A stretch of DNA of 64,000 nucleotides from positions 160,001 through 224,000 of the forward strand of contig CAVPSJ010000008.1 in NCBI GenBank assembly GCA_963708295.1. Direction: 5' to 3'. The notes below the pieces were generated by a model. That model searched no databases, was not told the origin of the DNA, and saw only the letters and a program-made list of their open reading frames with translations. Origin of the DNA: an uncultured delta proteobacterium. Lineage in GTDB: Bacteria > Desulfobacterota > BSN033 > UBA1163. How positions within the stretch are numbered: the stretch's first letter is position 1; every line of letters starts with the position of its first letter. Made by a program: the position numbers and the translations under genes. Below are positions 2,271-10,854 of this stretch, in pieces.

Positions 2271-2350
2271 CACGGAGATACGGGGACGCGGGGACCCGGG
2301 GACACTGAGACGCGGAGAACCGGTGATGGGGAGATGGGGAAATTCGGAAA
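2265..2350 (+). repeat. Tandem 8-mer repeat arm (GAYRCGGR-like)
   Basis: gacacgga-gatacggg-gacgcggg-gacccggg-gacactga-gacgcgga... starting at the HAD stop codon. Confidence 0.8.
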
Positions 2351-2590
2351 CAATAAAATGAAGAAGAGGGAGATGCAGTCATAAGAGTCCAGTAATCTGT
2401 TCCGTGAGCATTTGTTTGATCCCGCAGACACTTTCAACCTGCCACCAATTTCTTCCTGAAATGTTGATTGTTCATTTTAGTTCCATAATACAAGATTTCA
2501 AACGGCAATTGGTAATGTGCTAATAACATTCCTTTCTTCCCAAGTTATTTTACCCCAAAAGACTCTCCAAAAACACTCCCAAAACACTCC

Positions 2591-2638
2591 TTGACAACTT
2601 AATAATAATGAAGTATCTTGCATGAGATTGATTTCATG
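2591..2638 (+). promoter_or_regulatory. Sigma70 promoter with adjacent palindromic operator
   Basis: TTGACA (2591) -17 bp- TATCTT (2614), then inverted repeat CATGAGAT-TG-ATTTCATG (2621-2638). Confidence 0.6.
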
Positions 2639-2687
2639 AAATAAAGTTTACTAGTGCATGCTGCAAACCTCGTAAGGGAGAAAGGAG

Positions 2688-3026
2688 TTGGTTGTGAAAC
2701 ATCTATCTAAATTACTTCGTATTTCACTCTTTATTGCTCTATTGGTTTTGCCAATGACCGCTTGTATGGAAGGTTCGTATGTTCTAAGTTTGACGGTTGA
2801 GACACCTCAGGATAAGGCGACTGTTAGTACGCCTACGGTCACGGTAAGTGGCACAGTCACTAAGACGGCTGAGGTGAAGATTAATGACGTGGTAGTGCCG
2901 TCTAAAGGTAGCAAATTCTCCACCGATATCAAGTTGACCGAAGGGAGCAATGTTATTACGGTTGTCGCTAAATCGGGTAAGGACACGGAAACGAAGACGC
3001 TGACTATTACCTACAAACCAAGTTAG
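2688..3026 (+). CDS. Putative lipoprotein with an Ig-like beta-sandwich domain
   Basis: AAGGAG RBS; signal peptide ending 'LPMTAC'; beta-rich 'VTVSGTV...LTEGSNVITVVAK...TLTITY'. Confidence 0.7.
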   Translation: MVVKHLSKLLRISLFIALLVLPMTACMEGSYVLSLTVETPQDKATVSTPTVTVSGTVTKTAEVKINDVVVPSKGSKFSTDIKLTEGSNVITVVAKSGKDTETKTLTITYKPS

Positions 3027-3132
3027 CAGTCTGGCTAAGAACAGGAATCAAATTCCAAAACTGGGAGCAATTGACGGAGGAGAAGACCTAAAATTGCCTA
3101 CAATAAATTTGTTTACTTAGATTATTAGGCAC

Positions 3133-3222
3133 TACAGGGTCCAGAGATATACAAATATTTCTGGAGGTTAAAAACCTTGATAGTCGGGCCGCTATCTGTA
3201 CGTGGAGGATAGCGGCTTTTTT
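3133..3222 (+). promoter_or_regulatory. Candidate nhaA-I/DUF1646-like (Li+/Na+) riboswitch with intrinsic terminator
   Basis: GGGT(3137)...two hairpins...GTCGGGCCGC(3183-3192), overlapping terminator CCGCTATC/GATAGCGG + T-tract. The terminator is clear; the family assignment is from recalled consensus only. Confidence 0.4.
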
Positions 3223-3281
3223 ATGCAATGAACTAGAGCGGTCTTTCAAAACTTCGATTCAGAATTAAGGGAGGAATCAAC

Positions 3282-3608
3282 ATGGCAACATGGACATTTC
3301 TTACGAATCATGCAATTGTACTTTTCTTTCTGGCTAAACATCCATTAATCACTGGACGAGAGTTGTCAGGATTAATAGGGATTACGGAAAGGTCAGTAAG
3401 AAATATTATTTCTGATCTCGAATCAGAGGGGTATATCCAAAAGTCCAAAGAGGGAAGGCAAGCAAGGTATAAAACCAATCCGCATTTACCTCTTCGGCAC
3501 CGCACTCAGAAGGATAAGGCAATAAAAATTCTCCTCGAAGCATTAGACGGCGAACAAATACGAAAAGGAGCCAAGAAACGGGAAGCATCGTCGAAGGCAG
3601 TTCTATAA
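3282..3608 (+). CDS. Winged helix-turn-helix transcriptional regulator ('WTFLTNHA' type)
   Basis: GGAGG RBS; HTH 'TGRELSGLIGITERSVRNIISDLESEGYI' and wing 'EGRQARY'. Confidence 0.85.
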   Translation: MATWTFLTNHAIVLFFLAKHPLITGRELSGLIGITERSVRNIISDLESEGYIQKSKEGRQARYKTNPHLPLRHRTQKDKAIKILLEALDGEQIRKGAKKREASSKAVL

Positions 3609-3836
3609 AAAAAGGGACTCCAACTTTCTGTGTCTCCTGTTTCATCGCCTCCGTCGATGTATTCAGGTCAAGTAACGATCCACCCCCTTGTTTCAATATT
3701 TCAAACGATAATCTTGATTACTCAGTATGAGCCACCATTGCGGCTTTGTAGGTGCTATACGTAACATAATCTGCTTTTCCTTGTGATATTAGTTAGTTAA
3801 TGGCTGTTTTCCTTTATCACTTTTTTTCTATCCCTG

Positions 3837-4772
3837 TCAAGATAATTCGTTTTCAGCGCCTCCGAGTAACTCCATGCTCTCCTGTTCGTCGTCATCCTCT
3901 TGTTGCGCCTGCGTTCTTTGCAGAACCACCTGCATGGCCTTGTAGTAGTCTCGTTGGACCTTGAGGTTGGCTACGCGGCAGTAGCGCTGCGTGGTGGTAA
4001 TCTGGCCATGTCCCAGAAGGTCCTGAATGGTCGCAAGGTCGGCATCGGCATTGAGAAGCTGTGTGGCCATGGTGTGGCGAAGCCGATGACACGAGACGTT
4101 GAGTCCACTTTGTCGCCCATAGTATTCGATCCTCTTCTGAATGCCTCGGACCGATATCGGTTTGCCTCTCATCGGTCCCTTCTGCACCAGAAACAATCCT
4201 CTGGCTTTCGAGGACCGTTTCGCCAGATACACCGAAAGAGCGGATTGGGCATCTTCACTCATGTAGACCACCCGATCCTTCGCCCCTTTTCCATGGAAGA
4301 CAAAGATCTGTCTTCTCCCGTACTCTACCGCATCAACCGTCAGCTCAGCCACCTCCTGGACCCGAAGGCCGCAGCGGAGCATCAACATGAACATGGCCCG
4401 GTCTCTCAGATCCGTGATGCCATCAAAGAGGCCCCTGACCTGGTCATCCTTCAGGTGCCGGGGCAGTGGCTTGGGCAGACGGAGCGAGATCCGGGTGACA
4501 GGGTTGATGATCGATCTGCCTTCCTCATTTGTGAGATAGTCGAAGAAGAGACGAATCGTTTGCAGGTGGCACGTGATCGTCTTGGGCGTTCGTCTCTTTC
4601 GGAGCAGATGATCGACATAGGCTCCGATCTCCTTACGAGTCACATCAGAGAGAGGCACGGTAAGCCATCGGATGAACTGATCGAGGATGTTGACATAGCT
4701 CTTGACCGTGTGGGCCGAGTAGTTTTTTCTCTTCAAGGCTCTCCGGTACCCAATCAGCTCAGTAGGTTCCAT
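3837..4772 (-). CDS. Tyrosine recombinase/integrase (second gene of the pair)
   Basis: Start MEPTELIG after GGAGGG RBS; 'GLRVQEV', 'GKGAKDR', 'HRLRH', 'LLGH...TTQRY'. Confidence 0.93.
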   Translation of the reverse strand: MEPTELIGYRRALKRKNYSAHTVKSYVNILDQFIRWLTVPLSDVTRKEIGAYVDHLLRKRRTPKTITCHLQTIRLFFDYLTNEEGRSIINPVTRISLRLPKPLPRHLKDDQVRGLFDGITDLRDRAMFMLMLRCGLRVQEVAELTVDAVEYGRRQIFVFHGKGAKDRVVYMSEDAQSALSVYLAKRSSKARGLFLVQKGPMRGKPISVRGIQKRIEYYGRQSGLNVSCHRLRHTMATQLLNADADLATIQDLLGHGQITTTQRYCRVANLKVQRDYYKAMQVVLQRTQAQQEDDDEQESMELLGGAENELS

Positions 4773-5772
4773 CGATCCCTCCTTTCTCGATAATGGCCAT
4801 GGCCCGGAAGTACTCTTGTTCACGGGTTCTGTCCGTGAGCCGGGCGTATCGGCGGGTGACCTCGATGTCCTGATGACCCAGTAGCTGCTGGAGACATTCC
4901 AGGCGCATCCCCGCGTTGAGAAGCTCGGAGGCAAACGTGTGACGCAGACAATGGACCGTGTAGCCTTTCTGTTCAAACCCTGCTTTCTTGAGGTATTTTA
5001 CGAAAAGGTATCTGCCGGTACTGTAACAGAGATGCCCATTGCTCTGGCCGTAAAAGACGAATTCCTTGTTCTTGTCCCTTTGCCTCAGCCAAAGCTTGAT
5101 GGCAAACAGCGCATCGTCACTCAGATACACCACCCTCCCCATGCTGTTCTTCTCTCCCTCGTACAGATCAACCTTTCTACCTTTGATGTCCAGATCGTTT
5201 AACCTTAGTCCCAAGGCCTCGCCGATCCGGATGCCTGTCCGTAAAAGCAGAAGGATCAGAGCCCGGTCCCGGATCTCCTCAATCACCGAGAGAAGTTTTC
5301 TCACATCGACGGGGTTCATCGCCCGAGGCAGGACCTCCGGCAGCTTCAGCTTGATGCCTCGCTTGAGAACGGATCCTGGGATGATATCCTGCTCCATCAG
5401 AAAATGCACAAATGCAAGGATGCAAGCCACCCTCGTCCGCACCGTGGAGATGCGTAATCCCCGGTCCTGCTCCTGCTCGATGAAACCTTCCAGGTCCCTC
5501 CGTTCGAGTTTCTCGATTTCTCTCTTGCCTAACTTCCCATAAAAGTCCAGGAAGAGCCTGACGGAGTTAAAGGAACCGGACAGCGTACTCCGTTTGTGGT
5601 TCAGACGCCACTTGTGGCGCATGTAGCGCTCCAAGTGTTCCTTGGCGGGAAGCTCTAACCAAGAGAGCTTCTGGAGGATGCGGTCGATTGGCGTGGGTGA
5701 AAGAGGCTGTTCACGTACAACTTCATCTTCACACTTGATTGACTCATTGCTGATCAACTGTCCCTGGGTCAT
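4759..5772 (-). CDS. Tyrosine recombinase/integrase (first gene of the pair)
   Basis: Start MTQGQ after AGGAGG RBS; 'GIRIGEA', 'EKNSMGR', 'HCLRH', 'LLGH...VTRRY'; overlaps the next gene by 14 bp. Confidence 0.93.
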   Translation of the reverse strand: MTQGQLISNESIKCEDEVVREQPLSPTPIDRILQKLSWLELPAKEHLERYMRHKWRLNHKRSTLSGSFNSVRLFLDFYGKLGKREIEKLERRDLEGFIEQEQDRGLRISTVRTRVACILAFVHFLMEQDIIPGSVLKRGIKLKLPEVLPRAMNPVDVRKLLSVIEEIRDRALILLLLRTGIRIGEALGLRLNDLDIKGRKVDLYEGEKNSMGRVVYLSDDALFAIKLWLRQRDKNKEFVFYGQSNGHLCYSTGRYLFVKYLKKAGFEQKGYTVHCLRHTFASELLNAGMRLECLQQLLGHQDIEVTRRYARLTDRTREQEYFRAMAIIEKGGIDGTY

Positions 5773-5983
5773 TTCTCTTCCTCCTTTTCTTTTGCAAGAA
5801 AAAGCAGAATAGATCATGACCCTTAGCACTTCTAACGGTCAATCCATTTTGTTACGTATAGGTAGGTGTAACCTGCAACCCACTTTTTCACCTCTTCCTA
5901 CCTGTAACTTTCTCTTCCCTAATTTGTGAAATGAGTGTATATTGCAAGCGGGTGAGGTGTGAAGATAATATTGAAACCAAACT

Positions 5984-6062
5984 GTCCAACTAATCGCTCA
6001 AGCGGACTCGCTGCGTCTATGCTGCGCTTCACCTGCGCTCGCCGCTTGGGGTGGTATTGGAT
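5984..6062 (+). other. Degenerate attC-like integron cassette site
   Basis: R'' GTCCAAC, L'' GCTCAAGCGG ... CCGCTTGGG, R'-like ATTGGAT; imperfect hairpin. Confidence 0.6.
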
Positions 6063-6087
6063 CACACACGATGAAGGGGGGTCATAA

Positions 6088-6651
6088 ATGAGCAGCTACC
6101 GTGTACATTACAAAAAAGGTGATGTCGAGATTGAAGTCGAGTCTACTGACAAGGACTACGTTGGCCAAATGTTGCAGAAATTCCTCCCGCCGCAGGCGCC
6201 TAAGATTCCGGCGGGCAAACCCGCAAAGCAAAAAGGTAAACCCCCCAAAATTGGCCGTCGACATCCCCAAGGCAAGGAAGCCGTAGCGAATGAAGAAGAA
6301 ACCATGATCGATTACGCTGCAGTTGCGAACGCCGTTCATGAGTCGGACAAGACCGAGGATATTCAAAAGAACATCCTGAACAAACGGGACAATCTTGGTC
6401 GCATTCTGCTGTCATTCCACTTCGCTCATGAGGCAGGAAATGAATATCTTACAACCGGCGATGTTGAGAAGATTACCGATCAACTTAGGATTAAAATTTC
6501 TCAACCTAATGTATCGGGCTGCGTGGCCAAAAACCGCAAATACTTCTCAGCGGCGAGAGCGCGACGAAGGGGGGCAGTAGTGCCTTACAAATTGAACAGG
6601 GCAGGGGAGCAGGCTTACGAGAAACTCATAGCCGGCGGGAAGGTGAAATAG
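6088..6651 (+). CDS. Hypothetical protein with a probable C-terminal winged-helix domain
   Basis: 187-aa ORF with RBS; Pro/Lys linker; 'LTTGDVEKI...QPNVSGCV...YKLNRAGEQAY'. Confidence 0.75.
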   Translation: MSSYRVHYKKGDVEIEVESTDKDYVGQMLQKFLPPQAPKIPAGKPAKQKGKPPKIGRRHPQGKEAVANEEETMIDYAAVANAVHESDKTEDIQKNILNKRDNLGRILLSFHFAHEAGNEYLTTGDVEKITDQLRIKISQPNVSGCVAKNRKYFSAARARRRGAVVPYKLNRAGEQAYEKLIAGGKVK

Positions 6652-6652
6652 C

Positions 6653-7441
6653 ATGCCGTCCATAGACAAGAACACTCTTCTCGCTGCAATATGCCCACCT
6701 CTTGACCAACGTCTGGCCGACCAGATGGTTGATGAGTTCATATCATTAGAACGGCGCTACGTGCTTCGTGATTGGGAGCCGGCTACTCTTGACGGAGGTC
6801 AATTCGCGGAAGCGTCAGCAAGGCTACTATACCATCAGGACTCGAGAACCTTGAACCGCCGTAAGGGCGTAAATGAATGCCTCACCTATGTGGAAGACCC
6901 CGCCAATTCAAATCCTCATGCATTTCCGGAGCGAAAAGCAGCCCTCCATATTGACAGGATTATTCGTACCATCTACAAGTTCCGTTCAGATCGTGGTGCA
7001 GTACATATAGACCCCGATTATACGGCGAACCATCTGGACTCCAAGCTTGTACTTGAGAACTGCCGCTGGGTTATATCGGAATTCCTACGGGTGTTTTGGA
7101 CTGCAGACCGGCGCCAGGTTGCAGCTGCAATCCGGCAGATTATTCAGTATGACGTACCAGTAATCGGCGTTTATGACGGATGTCCGCTTGTTCAAAGGGT
7201 CGATTGCTCGGCAGAAGAGGAAATCCTCATCCTACTTCATCACGCCGGGGAAGAGGGGTTGAGCCGCACCGAAATCGGTCGCGCCGTACTGAGAGGGGCG
7301 CCTGCTGTCACAAAAGCTCTGACCATACTCATTTCACCGAGACGCCGCGAGGTCGTGAAGTTACAAAATGGGAACTATCGGCTGACGGATATCGGTATAC
7401 GCCGCGTTCTGACTGAGCTTGCCGATAAACTCGTAATTTGA
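6653..7441 (+). CDS. Putative HEPN-like RNase fused to a C-terminal wHTH
   Basis: Helical region with 'IYKFRSDRGAVH' (Rx4-6H); C-terminal 'LSRTEIG...YRLTDIG'; starts 1 nt after the upstream stop. Confidence 0.65.
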   Translation: MPSIDKNTLLAAICPPLDQRLADQMVDEFISLERRYVLRDWEPATLDGGQFAEASARLLYHQDSRTLNRRKGVNECLTYVEDPANSNPHAFPERKAALHIDRIIRTIYKFRSDRGAVHIDPDYTANHLDSKLVLENCRWVISEFLRVFWTADRRQVAAAIRQIIQYDVPVIGVYDGCPLVQRVDCSAEEEILILLHHAGEEGLSRTEIGRAVLRGAPAVTKALTILISPRRREVVKLQNGNYRLTDIGIRRVLTELADKLVI

Positions 7442-7449
7442 GCGAGAAA

Positions 7450-7513
7450 GTCAAACAAACGGCTGCACCCGCTCCGCCGATAAACCCGGCTCCCGGTGAC
7501 CTTTTCGTTACCC
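7450..7513 (+). other. Degenerate attC-like site
   Basis: GTCAAAC-AAACG-GCTGCACC...GGTGACC-TTTTC-GTTACCC just after the 262-aa ORF stop. Confidence 0.5.
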
Positions 7514-7620
7514 TCTCTTTCAACTCGTAATCTTTGATTCCTGATTATGGTTGTCCGTAATGACTTGTAGGTGTTATATCTATAAGAAGAGATGTTTGTT
7601 GATGTCCCTCCCCTTACCCT

Positions 7621-7696
7621 TTCTCCCAATCTTCTTATCTTCCCATCTCCGCGTCACCGTGTCTCGCCGTCACCGCGTCTATTATCTCACCGCGTC
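7621..7696 (-). repeat. Tandem 8-mer repeat arm, inverted relative to 2265-2350
   Basis: Minus strand reads gacgcggt-gacggcga-gacacggt-gacgcgga-gatgggaa-gataagaa-gattggga after the glpC-fragment stop. Confidence 0.75.
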
Positions 7697-7996
7697 AATG
7701 CATCTCTTAAGATCTGGATAGGATGGAGGACTTTCAATCCAGTGAGGTGACGGATTTGCAGGCGACAGCCTTCGCAGTCGGACAGGATAATTTCGGGTTT
7801 GAGACGGTCGATCGCCTCCTTCAAATCCCTTCCGATCTCCTGAGAGATCTCATATTTTTCTTTCTTAAATCCATAGGTACCGCCCAGCCCGCAGCAATCC
7901 GCTTCGATGTTGTCCAGTTGAAGGCCCGGGATAGAGCGGAGGATTTCAACGGCAGGGAGGCCAATTCCCAGGGCTCTCAAATGACATGGGGCAAAA
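7687..7996 (-). pseudogene. glpC: Duplicated 3' fragment of glpC
   Basis: 7699-7996 aligns without gaps to 9624-9921; encodes FAPCHLRALG...ILRDALTR*; no matching 5' part. Confidence 0.9.
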
Positions 7997-8205
7997 AAGA
8001 AGGGGACGTAGGTTCTGAGACAACTTGGGGAAGAAGCACGAGCCCCAGCCGTTGACAAGAAAGATTCGGTTCCTTCGTCTGGGAAAGAAAAAATGGGGCA
8101 GCCAATTGAGTGTATTGTAATGGAAACACTCCTTTGTTTCGCAGTCTGTGTCAACCAGAATGGCTACTTTATTTTTGACGTGAGACGGTCAGCAGAGCAG
8201 ACAGG

Positions 8206-8640
8206 TTATTTCTTGTTCTCTTGGGAAGATAAGTATTTGATAATCGCTTTCTTATATTTTTCAAAGTCCCTTAAATCCCGGTGAAGAATTGAGACAACAA
8301 TCGTAGGATCGATGGTTTCATATTGATGGACAACGACATTTCTAAATATTGCCATCTTCTCTAATGTTCCGCATAAATTCCTACCAATCACCTTGTTTTC
8401 CATCAAAATCTTAAAAGTATCAGCATAGCCAGTTGGCAGCCTCATTTCCTGGTCAGAAATAATGTGATTCGCAATGTCGACACAAGCCTCGATAAGAATA
8501 TGCAATGTCCTCTCAACGATCCTCTGAGTTTTCCAATCGATTTTATATCGATTCAGAGAAATTCTGGAGAAATCCCCAATCTGTTTAAGATAGGTATCTA
8601 TCTGGACAAGCTTCCTCCCTATCAAGAGCTTATCAACCAA
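8206..8640 (-). CDS. HepT-like HEPN toxin (DUF86)
   Basis: 'FRNVVVHQY' Rx4HxY motif; overlaps the upstream MNT gene. Confidence 0.9.
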   Translation of the reverse strand: MVDKLLIGRKLVQIDTYLKQIGDFSRISLNRYKIDWKTQRIVERTLHILIEACVDIANHIISDQEMRLPTGYADTFKILMENKVIGRNLCGTLEKMAIFRNVVVHQYETIDPTIVVSILHRDLRDFEKYKKAIIKYLSSQENKK

Positions 8641-9049
8641 TGCCGTACCTCCTATGCAGGATCTCTCTTTCTTTTATGGTAAAATCAAAAAATTCTCTCA
8701 GTATTCGAGATTCGTATTTGTGTCTCAGAAAAGGGTCTTTATCAATCAAGATTTTTCTTTTCTGCAAAATCCTTCCAGCGAGGCTAATGGGCGCGGAATT
8801 CAGGACGACCAAGTCGATCTCATCGGTACCGAGAATTCGTGAAATTTCACTGAATAACGAAAGGAAGTCTAATCTCTTTATATTCCTCACGTATATCCCC
8901 AGATCGACATCACTCAAGATTCTCCTTTTGTCTCTTGCCATGCCCCCAAAAAGGTAAGCGAAGATAATATTGGGGTCATCCATGAAAAGATCGGCTAAGA
9001 GATCGAGATGTTTGTGGATGTCTTCCGGTATCCTTTTAAAACGTATCAT
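8633..9049 (-). CDS. MntA-like minimal nucleotidyltransferase antitoxin
   Basis: 'AYLFGGMARD...SDVDLGI...EIDLVVLNSAP'. Confidence 0.9.
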   Translation of the reverse strand: MIRFKRIPEDIHKHLDLLADLFMDDPNIIFAYLFGGMARDKRRILSDVDLGIYVRNIKRLDFLSLFSEISRILGTDEIDLVVLNSAPISLAGRILQKRKILIDKDPFLRHKYESRILREFFDFTIKEREILHRRYGIG

Positions 9050-9133
9050 GGTTAAACCATGTCAAAGAAGGGAGCAAAGTCTAATCAGAATTGTCTTAGC
9101 AATTACCTGCTGGCATATTAACATGACTCAACC

Positions 9134-9328
9134 CTATGTGCGTTTAAGAATCTCAAAAGGTCTTCGGTGTCCATGCTCGACCATCTGTCTTAGCATCTCT
9201 CTCGATTTCCGTTTCATCATTTTGAGGCGCTCTTCAAAGGTCAAAGAAGCGAGGTAATTCAGTTCAAACTCAAGCTCCTTTTCCTCATCGGACTGGGATA
9301 ATTTAAGGATCGATCCATGGCTTCCCAT
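9134..9328 (-). CDS. Small hypothetical protein, antitoxin-like
   Basis: Charged helical ORF 'DEEKELEFELNYLASLTFEERLKMM' co-oriented upstream of the MNT-HEPN pair; start uncertain. Confidence 0.55.
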   Translation of the reverse strand: MGSHGSILKLSQSDEEKELEFELNYLASLTFEERLKMMKRKSREMLRQMVEHGHRRPFEILKRT

Positions 9329-9454
9329 AGGTTCAAAGTAGACTTTTTCCATGTCTAAGTCAAGCCTAATACGGGGTCTTATGCTGACGGAATTAGATTG
9401 AGTTACCAGTGAGGCCATAGTTAAGAAAACGTAATTACACTGCTTCGGTAAATT

Positions 9455-9563
9455 CCCATCCCTTTCCTAACCTCCCCCTTGAAGGGGGAGGAACATAATG
9501 TTTTCCCTCCCCTTCAGGGGGAGGGAAAGGGTGGGGGTGGGTTAATCAGATGTCTACTCAATT
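9455..9563. repeat. REP-like CCCTCCCCTT/AGGGGGAGG palindromic element, copy 1
   Basis: Shares the core and the tail GGGTGGGGGTGG-GTTAATCAGA-GTCTA-TCAATT with 63115-63356. Confidence 0.75.
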
Positions 9564-9614
9564 ATGGACGACTAGTGAGTCTATAGAGAAAGGGAACATT
9601 GAGGAATATGAGGC

Positions 9615-10835
9615 CTACAGAAGTGCATCTCTTAGAATCTGGATGGGATGCAAAACCTTCAGGCCGGTCAGGTGGCGGATTTGCAGGCGACAGCCTTCGC
9701 AGTCGGACAGGATGATGTCGGGTTTGAGACGGTCGATCGCCTCTGCCAAATCCCTTCCGATCTCCTGGGAGATCTCATATTTTTCTTTCTTAAATCCATA
9801 GGTACCGCCCAGCCCGCAGCAGTCCGCTTCGATGTTGTCCAGTTGAAGACCCGGGATAGAGCGGAGGATTTCAACGGCAGGGAGGCCAATTCCCAGGGCT
9901 CTCAAATGACATGGGGCAAAATAGGCCGTTCTTAGCGAAAGTTGTTTAAAATTTATGTTGAGGTTATTCAATTCCTTTAGGTTTGTGAGAAACTCGAACA
10001 CGTCGAAAGTGTGGGCGGCGACTTCCTCCGCTCCGGGAATGGAGAGGAGTTGGCTGTATTCATGCTTGATCATGTAACCGCAACTGGTTCCGGAAAAGAG
10101 AATGTCCAAGCCCGAATGGACGGCCTTCAGAAAAGAGGGGACGTTCCGAAGGGCCATTTCTTTTGCCGTCTTGAAATCTCCATTCCCGAGCATGGGAATG
10201 CCGCAGCAACTCTGCGGGGGAAGGACGACTTCGAACCCATTGGCCTCCAAGACTTGAACCGTTGCTTTTCCGACGTCGACTTCATTGGTATTGGTATAGC
10301 AGCCGTAAAAATAGCCAACCCTTTTGCTCCCTTTTGAACGGTGTTTTTTAAACCATCTTCTGAAGGTCGAAGATTCGTATCCTGGGAGTTCTCTCCTCCG
10401 ATCTATCCTCAGGAGGATCTCTACGAACCTTTTGATGAGACGGTTTTTTAAGAGAGGATTGAGAAGGAAAGAGGAGAGGGATCCAAAACGTCCAAAAAGA
10501 TAGGAATGAGTGAGAAGCCAGTCCCGAAAGGGTCTTCCTTTTTCATCCAGATATTTTGCCTTGGCGATGAGATTTAGCTCGGAGATATTTACCCCCGAAG
10601 CGCAGACCATGTCACAGAGATGGCATCCGATGCAAAGATCAATCCGTTTATCCACAGAGGGTTCATCCGACCTTCGAAACCGTTCCATCCCGGGCCCCGC
10701 TTGCTTCGGGCCTGGAAATTCTGGGGTGACTCGCGCGACAGGGCAGACCGCCGCGCAGGTCGCGCAGCGGATGCAAACATCGGAGTTATTCTTGGGCCAA
10801 CTTTGTTTTTTCATCGCATGATCTAACTTTGGCAT
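9615..10835 (-). CDS. glpC: Anaerobic glycerol-3-phosphate dehydrogenase subunit C
   Basis: Two CxxCxxCxxxC motifs and two CCG domains; in an operon with glpA and glpB; start may be 10814-10841. Confidence 0.92.
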   Translation of the reverse strand: MPKLDHAMKKQSWPKNNSDVCIRCATCAAVCPVARVTPEFPGPKQAGPGMERFRRSDEPSVDKRIDLCIGCHLCDMVCASGVNISELNLIAKAKYLDEKGRPFRDWLLTHSYLFGRFGSLSSFLLNPLLKNRLIKRFVEILLRIDRRRELPGYESSTFRRWFKKHRSKGSKRVGYFYGCYTNTNEVDVGKATVQVLEANGFEVVLPPQSCCGIPMLGNGDFKTAKEMALRNVPSFLKAVHSGLDILFSGTSCGYMIKHEYSQLLSIPGAEEVAAHTFDVFEFLTNLKELNNLNINFKQLSLRTAYFAPCHLRALGIGLPAVEILRSIPGLQLDNIEADCCGLGGTYGFKKEKYEISQEIGRDLAEAIDRLKPDIILSDCEGCRLQIRHLTGLKVLHPIQILRDALL

Positions 10836-10854
10836 CGGCAAAAATGTTATCCAA

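Follow-up and report, generated by a model that had tools for sequence, protein, structure and literature searches.

Positions 3755–5868 of a 64,000 bp stretch of contig CAVPSJ010000008.1 (positions 160,001–224,000; assembly GCA_963708295.1) from an uncultured delta proteobacterium, here called the window, are probably occupied by a site-specific mobile element that resembles an insertion sequence (IS). Its only genes are a conserved, translationally coupled Xer-like pair, here named YR-A and YR-B. With its relatives, the element apparently makes up an undescribed family of minimal tyrosine recombinase elements that are specialised on the 7 bp borders of gene cassettes. An original prediction, made from the sequence of the window alone, had proposed a cargo-free two-recombinase element at this position, and much of it holds. 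The genome that contains the window is referred to as G000 (20 contigs, 91% complete; the window copy is on contig C8) and a nearly closed relative as G010 (2 contigs, 95% complete); both are incomplete metagenome-assembled genomes (MAGs). Coordinates without a contig prefix are those of the window.

Structure of the element

The unit is 2,107 bp long (3755–5861) and is bounded by 16 nt inverted repeats that match at 15 of 16 positions, each of which adjoins a copy of GTAGGTG (3748–3754 and 5862–5868), exactly as had been described (Table 1). By our own arithmetic, approximately 0.03 inverted pairs matching at 15 or more of 16 positions are expected by chance in 2.4 kb; the real test against chance is that these ends and 7-mers recur in over 100 independent copies. 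The second inverted motif that had been noted near both ends is also in place, with the pair at 3767–3783 and 5795–5811 matching at 15 of 17 positions and sharing the sequence TCTGCTTTTYCTTG. In a subfamily of approximately 54% identity, both of these subterminal boxes are swapped for another inverted pair at unchanged positions. Each element end contains 82–89 nt of non-coding DNA, and the reading frames of YR-A, which has an N-terminal extension of approximately 55 aa, and YR-B share 14 nt.

Two sequence features of the original prediction were borne out in part. The promoter candidate TTGACC/CATGAT is present at 5842–5813 on the minus strand, and in the loci found by protein search TTGACC lies at a fixed distance from the element end, but promoter-type matches are not enriched over shuffled sequence (2 found versus 1.4 expected). 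Likewise, GYAAY is found on all four arms of the window copy but is not general at other insertion sites, where left flanks read ...ATTGACTT up to GTAGGTG and right flanks read AAGTCGCCAAA after GTAGGTG. The target logo RTTRC-N6-core-N6-GYAAY fails at those sites.

Table 1. Features of the element, its neighbouring cassettes and the island that contains them
Feature	Position	Strand	Remarks
Inserted island	2303..9620	.	7.3 kb between HAD hydrolase and CCG/Fe-S genes
Cassette A	2450..3754	+	Starts TTCTTCCTGAAATG (Part 2 hairpin), ends TTTCAAACGATAATC-N33-GTAGGTG (Part 1); element inserted behind it
Cassette A open reading frame (ORF), lipoprotein-like	2688..3026		
Cassette A ORF, winged-helix	3282..3608		
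Left core copy GTAGGTG	3748..3754	+	Final 7 nt of the cassette A 3' end (Part 1)
Left terminal inverted repeat CTATACGTAACATAAT	3755..3770	+	YR-B side; inverted-repeat search, 94% complementary; kept in related loci
Subterminal box TAATCTGCTTTTCCTTG	3767..3783	+	Abuts left end; inverted-repeat search; pair kept in relatives
YR-B, 311 aa, Xer-like tyrosine recombinase	3837..4772	-	R137 K162 H229 R232 H255 Y264
YR-A, 337 aa, Xer-like tyrosine recombinase	4759..5772	-	R182 K208 H274 R277 H300 Y309
Inverted copy of subterminal box	5795..5811	+	Between promoter candidate and YR-A start
Promoter candidate TTGACC-18-CATGAT	5813..5842	-	9/12 matches; reads into YR-A
Right terminal inverted repeat ATTTTGTTACGTATAG	5846..5861	+	YR-A side; inverted-repeat search
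Right core copy GTAGGTG	5862..5868	+	Homology of all copies stops here
Next cassette	5869..7573	+	Short linker and degenerate CTTCCT start at 5869–5915; Part 1 ending GTAGGTG at 7567–7573
Next-cassette ORF without family	6088..6651		
Next-cassette ORF without family	6653..7441		

The recombinase pair

Both proteins match Pfam Phage_integrase (E values of 1e-35 and 8e-37) and both have SAM-like N-terminal domains. The R-K-HxxR-H-Y set that each had been predicted to retain was confirmed by alignment with XerA (4a8e) and XerD (1a0p), and the six catalytic residues are invariant in 10 relatives of YR-A and 9 of YR-B. With this catalytic set and the Phage_integrase domain, YR-A and YR-B are members of the tyrosine recombinase superfamily. 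The best curated families for the two are XerA, XerC and XerD, all of them scoring well under their cut-offs (NCBIfam XerC, 192 bits versus a cut-off of 335; XerD, 166 bits versus 330), while the scores with the integron-integrase model TIGR02249 (cut-off, 265 bits) were 112.1 and 78.5 bits and covered two partial stretches.

YR-A is followed by YR-B in 26 of 32 genome loci; five of the others end at a contig edge and one is a truncated copy. We infer that YR-A and YR-B act as one two-subunit enzyme. A prediction of the complex (score 0.20, with the mark at 0.32) speaks neither for nor against binding.

Copies, distribution and recent mobility

Three full copies are present in G000. Over the full 2,107 bp, the copies on contigs C8 and C12 show 100% identity, with contig C12 starting 2 nt ahead of the left inverted repeat, and the third, on contig C5, is 94.4% identical. 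G000 also holds three fragments, two of them right ends and one a left end, and all of its right ends (5/5) finish ...GTATAG GTAGGTG, after which the sequences part. G010 contains four copies that are 88% identical to that in the window, each in different flanks and each preceded at the left end by the GTAGGTG 7-mer (4/4); identity within copy pairs reaches 99.95% and 99.86%.

Scanning species genomes under the guidance of the protein sequences returned 32 loci, found in MAGs labelled delta proteobacteria or Thermodesulfobacteriota, in one Aminicenantes MAG and in one Manganitrophaceae chromosome. A pattern scan of metagenome contigs gave at least 120 loci, and the element is abundant in wetland and sediment metagenomes. 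In one wetland run, summed depth was 309–1469 over 3696–5939 and 0–118 in the flanking bins, figures that come from assembled Logan contigs rather than reads and are not copy numbers; positions without cover carry no meaning in them, and circles or rare forms would not show. Loose ends of metagenome contigs at 3753, 5868 and 5870 match the element borders. A plasmid search gave identities of approximately 26% or less among the matches listed, and no copy of the element end was found in viral contigs.

As had been proposed, the 3755–5861 unit is, judging by these copies and their identities, a discrete, cargo-free and recently active mobile element with a 7 bp sequence at both junctions. On the same grounds it would count as an IS in the broad sense, being short and multicopy, with inverted repeats, genes for mobility only and recent identical copies. 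Sites with a single 7-mer were found as well: in G015 a homologue of the right flank of the window copy lies behind one GTAGGTG, and in G001 the sequence to the left of the element ends GTAGATG with no element behind it.

The 7 bp core

The following counts were read in gene orientation (YR-A then YR-B) and are among the metagenome matches listed. At the YR-A side, at least 114 distinct junctions comprised 73 with CACCTAC (the reverse complement of GTAGGTG), 18 with CAGGAAG, 8 with CTTCCTG and 15 with other 7-mers, each seen 1–4 times and mostly 1–2 nt variants of the main three. Identical 7-mers lie at both ends of 32 of the 40 two-ended elements (25 CACCTAC, 4 CAGGAAG and 3 CTTCCTG), in agreement with the site specificity that had been predicted. 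The CACCTAC core has one orientation relative to the genes at 73/73 junctions and is a direct, not an inverted, repeat; the 7-mer is asymmetric, which would fix the orientation of insertion.

The core is not the same throughout the family. The GTAGGTG core is inverted relative to the genes in the approximately 54% identity subfamily, and CTTGCCA flanks both ends in a subfamily of approximately 50% identity. On a quick YR-A tree of 84 rows, from which 5 exact duplicates had been removed, elements with different core types are interleaved, and one mixed element combines a CAGGAAG end with a CACCTAC end, which is the intermediate expected of a core switch. Being common to element and target, asymmetric and occasionally switched, perhaps via a mismatched event, the 7-mer appears to behave as the overlap of a tyrosine recombinase should.

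The target is the border of a gene cassette

Homology between the C5 copy and the window begins at position 2450, not at 3755, and this led to a family of repeats of approximately 200 bp. A full site consists of Part 1, a linker and Part 2. Part 1 reads TTTCAAnCCGTAATC-N34-GTAGGTG. One type of linker reads N4-CGCCAAATTTTACTATCAACCTGCTCC...CATTTAG, and there are at least two more, which are shorter or otherwise distinct. Part 2 opens with CTTCCTG, which is followed by a hairpin (GAAATnGTTG...CAAnATTTC) and then AAnnGTAATC. In 28 copies the hairpin is 70% paired, against 30–43% when the partner column is shifted, and 16 of 1000 shuffles reach 70%; the hairpin was drawn by hand for this count and four rows that were off-register or duplicate were dropped. 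RNAalifold gave no consensus fold for Part 2.

In G000, nhmmer found 50 site matches, 18 of which are full sites. Eleven of the full sites and about as many part-site matches lie in one orientation at positions 1–50,300 of contig C17. The remaining matches are half sites, typically Part 2, then 1–5 kb of cargo, then Part 1. Seven such ordered units were counted, and from their order we conclude that gene cassettes are bordered by CTTCCTG on one side and GTAGGTG on the other. Reading the border sites as plain miniature inverted-repeat transposable elements is not favoured, because cargo-less cassette units are rare (one in G000). When two solitary full sites were compared across the genus, the surrounding regions proved to be repeat patchworks without clean synteny.

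The C17 array includes approximately 22 border sites, all on the minus strand, that separate blocks of 0.5–10 kb, and it reaches the contig start. Its genes encode TPR, aldo/keto reductase, DUF6599, metallophosphoesterase, AMP-binding enzyme, acyltransferase, PEP-CTERM protein and PAS histidine kinase products. Rfam found nothing in the 56 kb array on this contig.

Elements were found at both kinds of border. GATTAC, the signature of Part 1, occurs at +36 to +52 in 21 of 24 YR-B-side flanks of CACCTAC elements, and the left flanks in G010 end TGTAGGTG or TAGTAGGTG in all four cases. Elements with CTTCCTG or CAGGAAG cores are located at the start of a Part 2. Strict Part 1 matches numbered 13 in G000, 17 in G010 and 4 in the Manganitrophaceae (Nitrospirota) chromosome with one element, where a reversed-pattern control gave 1, 0 and 0, respectively; a relative from the same class without the element had none (control, 1). 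The element prefers as its target the 3' border of the cassette-border site (Part 1), and related elements use the CTTCCTG border in either orientation.

The left flank of the window copy, which the original prediction took for host sequence, is instead the 3' end of a 1.3 kb mobile cassette (cassette A, 2450–3754). On contig C5, cassette A is accompanied by the element; in G001, where the cassette end is the GTAGATG site mentioned above, and in G009, the element is absent. Behind it in the window come the recombinase unit (3755–5868) and another cassette (5869–7573), giving three units in a row.

Three observations concern other junctions of this kind. In G009 (L015, C189; 2790–2966), cassette A ends TTTGTAGATA and is directly followed by a transposase-like gene with an N-terminal motif that we take to be of the IS110 family. 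If that label holds, this cassette border serves a second kind of element as well. The duplicated 3.4 kb block on contig C5 (C5:98775–102192 versus 2450–5868) is a mosaic, with 97.7% identity over 2450–3900 and protein identities of 99% for YR-B and only 90% for YR-A. This suggests recombination between element variants, or separate insertions at one cassette end. Finally, truncated element copies are joined internally to cassette-border sequence at C17:30878–31556 and C17:393510–393856, with element position 5203 behind ...TTTTCCTCAG and the left end behind CATCCTG, and look like products of recombination at pseudo-CTTCCTG sites.

A proposed mechanism

The YR-A/YR-B pair would be transcribed from the promoter inside the YR-A end, with the TCTGCTTTTYCTTG box between promoter and start codon as a possible operator, while the partner box abuts the other end. 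The two proteins would synapse both ends and exchange strands across the identical 7 bp GTAGGTG copies, which would free a circle and leave a single GTAGGTG. We infer excision and a circular form, the junction of which (and of a tandem) is predicted to read ...GTTACGTATAG-GTAGGTG-CTATACGTAAC..., a classical core-type recombination site of 39 bp with a 16 bp arm on either side of the 7-mer. The restored site is predicted to read ATTGCGGCTTT-GTAGGTG-TAACCTGCAAC. By the reverse reaction, the circle would re-enter at a matching 7-mer of a cassette border.

Several points weigh against this account. Eight of the 40 two-ended elements among the matches listed are without identical 7-mers at both ends. 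Where the 7-mers are identical, a 7 bp target duplication would have the same outcome, against which can be set the gene content, as the element encodes no enzyme of another kind. The unoccupied sites may never have held an element, so that cutting out and copying out cannot be distinguished from them, and a search for circle or tandem junctions (end-7 nt-end) in the assembled sequence of 68 class genomes, 187 loci, G000 and viral contigs found none. The near-symmetric ends give no reason for two different recombinases; one of the two may bind the subterminal boxes or the target. Lastly, the genomes are incomplete MAGs, so a third gene that some relatives carry (ORF-C, described below) may have been missed in them.

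A possible engine for cassette movement

The association with cassettes raises a broader possibility, which we regard as tentative, namely that the recombinase pair is the engine of an integron-like system without a fixed platform and moves cassettes bounded by CTTCCTG (5', with the hairpin) and GTAGGTG (3'), which it would excise and insert at these 7-mers and so assemble into arrays. In such a system, and just as tentatively, the 2.1 kb unit would be a self-mobile 'integrase cassette', and arrays and intergenic palindromes would exchange cassettes. Element insertions use exactly the two 7-mers that bound the cassettes. The seven ordered units in G000, the single-orientation array of approximately 22 sites on contig C17, the paired Part 2 hairpin with its shifted controls, and the Part 1 sites alongside the element in the Nitrospirota chromosome (4 versus 0 in the control) are all in keeping with it. 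Cassette A has been found in four contexts, and the HAD/Fe-S locus that holds the island in the window is empty in 5 relatives and contains different cassettes in G000, G006 and G012. In addition, sites and YR-A are both concentrated in one genus, and no intact integron integrase was found in the G000 assembly.

However, the cassette ends (core then AAATC or AAGTC) are unlike the element ends (core then CTATACGTAAC), and the two cassette borders differ from one another, so exchange between identical cores would not excise a single cassette. Site BLAST matches were obtained in 13 of 15 genomes of the genus and YR-A in 7 of 15, a difference that MAG incompleteness may explain. The cassette genes have promoters and terminators of their own and look like ordinary genes of the chromosome, and no cassette circle was seen. 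We prefer the reading in which the element uses cassette borders as targets for its own movement.

One ORF in G000 is relevant to integrons in its own right. At C4:1007421–1007618, an 87 aa ORF best matches the C terminus of the integron-integrase model (86 bits, model positions 250–315) and may be an intI remnant.

An optional third gene

The two-gene organisation that had been predicted describes the window copy but not the whole family. Among the matches listed, 10 of 40 complete metagenome elements measure 3.3–4.0 kb. The longer elements carry a conserved non-recombinase gene of approximately 400 codons, here named ORF-C, 3' of YR-B and inside the same ends and 7-mers. ORF-C copies are 65–85% identical to one another. 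No Pfam, NCBIfam or PADLOC family was found for ORF-C, with weak TPR hints only, and it gave no Phage_integrase match and no BLASTP similarity to YR-A or YR-B. A protein atlas placed it among clusters of hypothetical proteins only, and AlphaFold, given an alignment of 6 rows, produced a poor model with a mean pLDDT of 43.6. A lone 124 aa ORF at C17:335381–335674 of G000 is 33% identical to the conserved N-terminal domain of ORF-C.

Among 89 elements with a complete YR-A, 48 have two genes, 19 have three and 22 are not classifiable. The state changes 9 times on the quick tree, with at least 3 of the changes on well-supported branches, and the deepest lineages (L047-50 and L186) are two-gene, a placement that rests on a midpoint root. 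ORF-C was not found in either G000 or G010 (91% and 95% complete), and both contain near-identical two-gene copies; on this evidence, the two-gene form probably moves without ORF-C.

It is unlikely, in our view, that the two-gene unit is instead a non-autonomous deletion derivative of a YR-A/YR-B/ORF-C element and needs ORF-C or another factor in trans. ORF-C does lie within the same ends and 7-mers in 19 of the 67 classifiable elements and diverges in step with the recombinases, and the number of state changes fits repeated loss. A requirement for a small or accessory third protein is also described for Tn554 and SEs in the available text of PMC10214605. However, ORF-C was not found in G000 or even in the 2-contig genome of G010, both of which hold near-identical two-gene copies, the deepest lineages are two-gene, and two-gene elements outnumber three-gene elements by 48 to 19. 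An invertible switch or a chromosomal XerC/XerD paralogue pair, suggested by genes that are flanked by inverted repeats and have XerA, XerC and XerD as best families, is refuted by the copy distribution (three full copies and fragments in G000 alone, others at many unrelated loci and genomes) and is made more improbable still by the uniformly direct CACCTAC core, the low XerC and XerD scores and the separate single-copy Xer candidates on contigs C11 and C13.

Comparison with known systems

The available text of a 2023 paper (PMC10214605) distinguishes five groups of prokaryotic tyrosine recombinase transposons: ICE/IME, SE, GInt, RIT and Tn554. Set against published descriptions of these, the element has the defining features of none of the five as they are given there, and would be the sixth and smallest group. 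We found no description of a two-recombinase element of this kind in the full-text literature, in line with the original suggestion that it may be undescribed; the supplementary tables of PMC3414803 and PMC10214605 may list two-recombinase modules.

The closest parallels differ in gene number. RIT elements, as far as the available texts describe them, are likewise small and multicopy and consist almost entirely of overlapping tyrosine recombinase genes between terminal inverted repeats, with a mobility deduced from distribution (PMC3414803, PMC10214605). However, they have three recombinases, RitA, RitB and RitC, and 34 bp repeats (PMC10214605), whereas the element has two recombinases and 16 bp repeats, and its optional third gene is no recombinase. 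A plasmid match, a recombinase next to an IS91 transposase, was considered and is not a RIT. BIM modules are described as one recombinase with an SMC-like protein (PMC3414803). Tn554 resembles the element in having two recombinases plus a third protein, site specificity and imperfect inverted ends, but according to the same account it combines one ordinary and one large recombinase, requires the small TnpC and leaves a 6 bp footprint, not identical flanks (PMC10214605). In the element neither protein is large (337 and 311 aa), a small third ORF is lacking, the optional third gene of relatives encodes approximately 400 aa, and 7-mers are identical in 32/40 cases among the matches listed. The original view that it fits neither RIT nor Tn554 is upheld.

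SE and GInt elements are also non-conjugative, with two catalytic tyrosine recombinases, imperfect inverted ends of 13–19 bp and a short circular-joint spacer, in the description available (PMC10214605). There they have four core genes (intA, tfp, intB and srap; ginA-D), which include a recombinase-like protein without the catalytic motif, are at least 6 kb, carry cargo and belong to Gamma- and Betaproteobacteria. The element, in contrast, is 2.1 kb with two genes (three in some relatives) and is found in Thermodesulfobacteriota of sediment and wetland and in other phyla. The 6 bp flanks described for SE and GInt differ between ends, while the element mostly has the same 7-mer at both.

Other systems share one aspect. 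As in integrons, genes in one orientation are split by structured repeat sites, and an Xer/IntI-like recombinase is the suspected engine. The differences are that there is no fixed platform, since the recombinase genes are themselves mobile, that the sites are approximately 200 bp with two different 7 bp borders, and that cassettes contain up to several genes with their own terminators. IS110/IS1111 elements that use REP or attC sites are likewise small elements inserting at one position of a dispersed structured repeat. They rely on a DEDD transposase guided by RNA, and the element encodes tyrosine recombinases only, with no more than the 82–89 nt of non-coding DNA at each end. TnPZ has copies of one 7 bp motif on its flanks and is moved by an Xer-like recombinase, but it is large and conjugative, has a single recombinase and lacks an IS-like inverted-repeat form. 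A role of XerT in the transfer of TnPZ in Helicobacter pylori is given in the available text of PMC8138268.

At 2.1 kb, with two proteins, a predicted 39 bp junction site and a defined 7 bp target, the element offers a simple system in which the need for more than one recombinase, the choice and switch of a 7 bp core, and cutting out versus copying out can be tested. It also points to a cassette system with repeats as borders, by which accessory-gene arrays of at least 50 kb are shaped in these bacteria, and a compact recombinase pair with a readable target rule may interest builders of genome-engineering tools.

The island in the window

The element and its two neighbouring cassettes lie within the inserted island (Table 1). 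The HAD and CCG/Fe-S genes on either side are adjacent, with no island, in five relatives (G002, G003, G004, G007 and G010), and the insertion spot is the middle of a long intergenic palindrome. In G006 and G012 this spot is occupied by other cassette remnants, and one metagenome contig joins 2252 directly to 7646. PADLOC found no defence family for the genes of the neighbouring cassettes.

The CCG/Fe-S gene is duplicated in its 3' part (7699–7999 versus 9624–9924, 93% identity; genes at 7687–8154 and 9615–10841), which leaves a truncated copy at the island edge. Also inside the island is a HepT/MNT-type toxin-antitoxin pair on the minus strand, in which a HepT-like ribonuclease gene (8206–8640) overlaps a nucleotidyltransferase gene (8633–9049). 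A repeat of approximately 170 bp at 9400–9576 has copies that are 78–93% identical on contigs C4, C12, C15, C16 and C17 and in at least 5 relatives. A terminator-like hairpin between the genes of cassette A (3137–3224) has further copies on contigs C12 and C13 as well as in several relatives.

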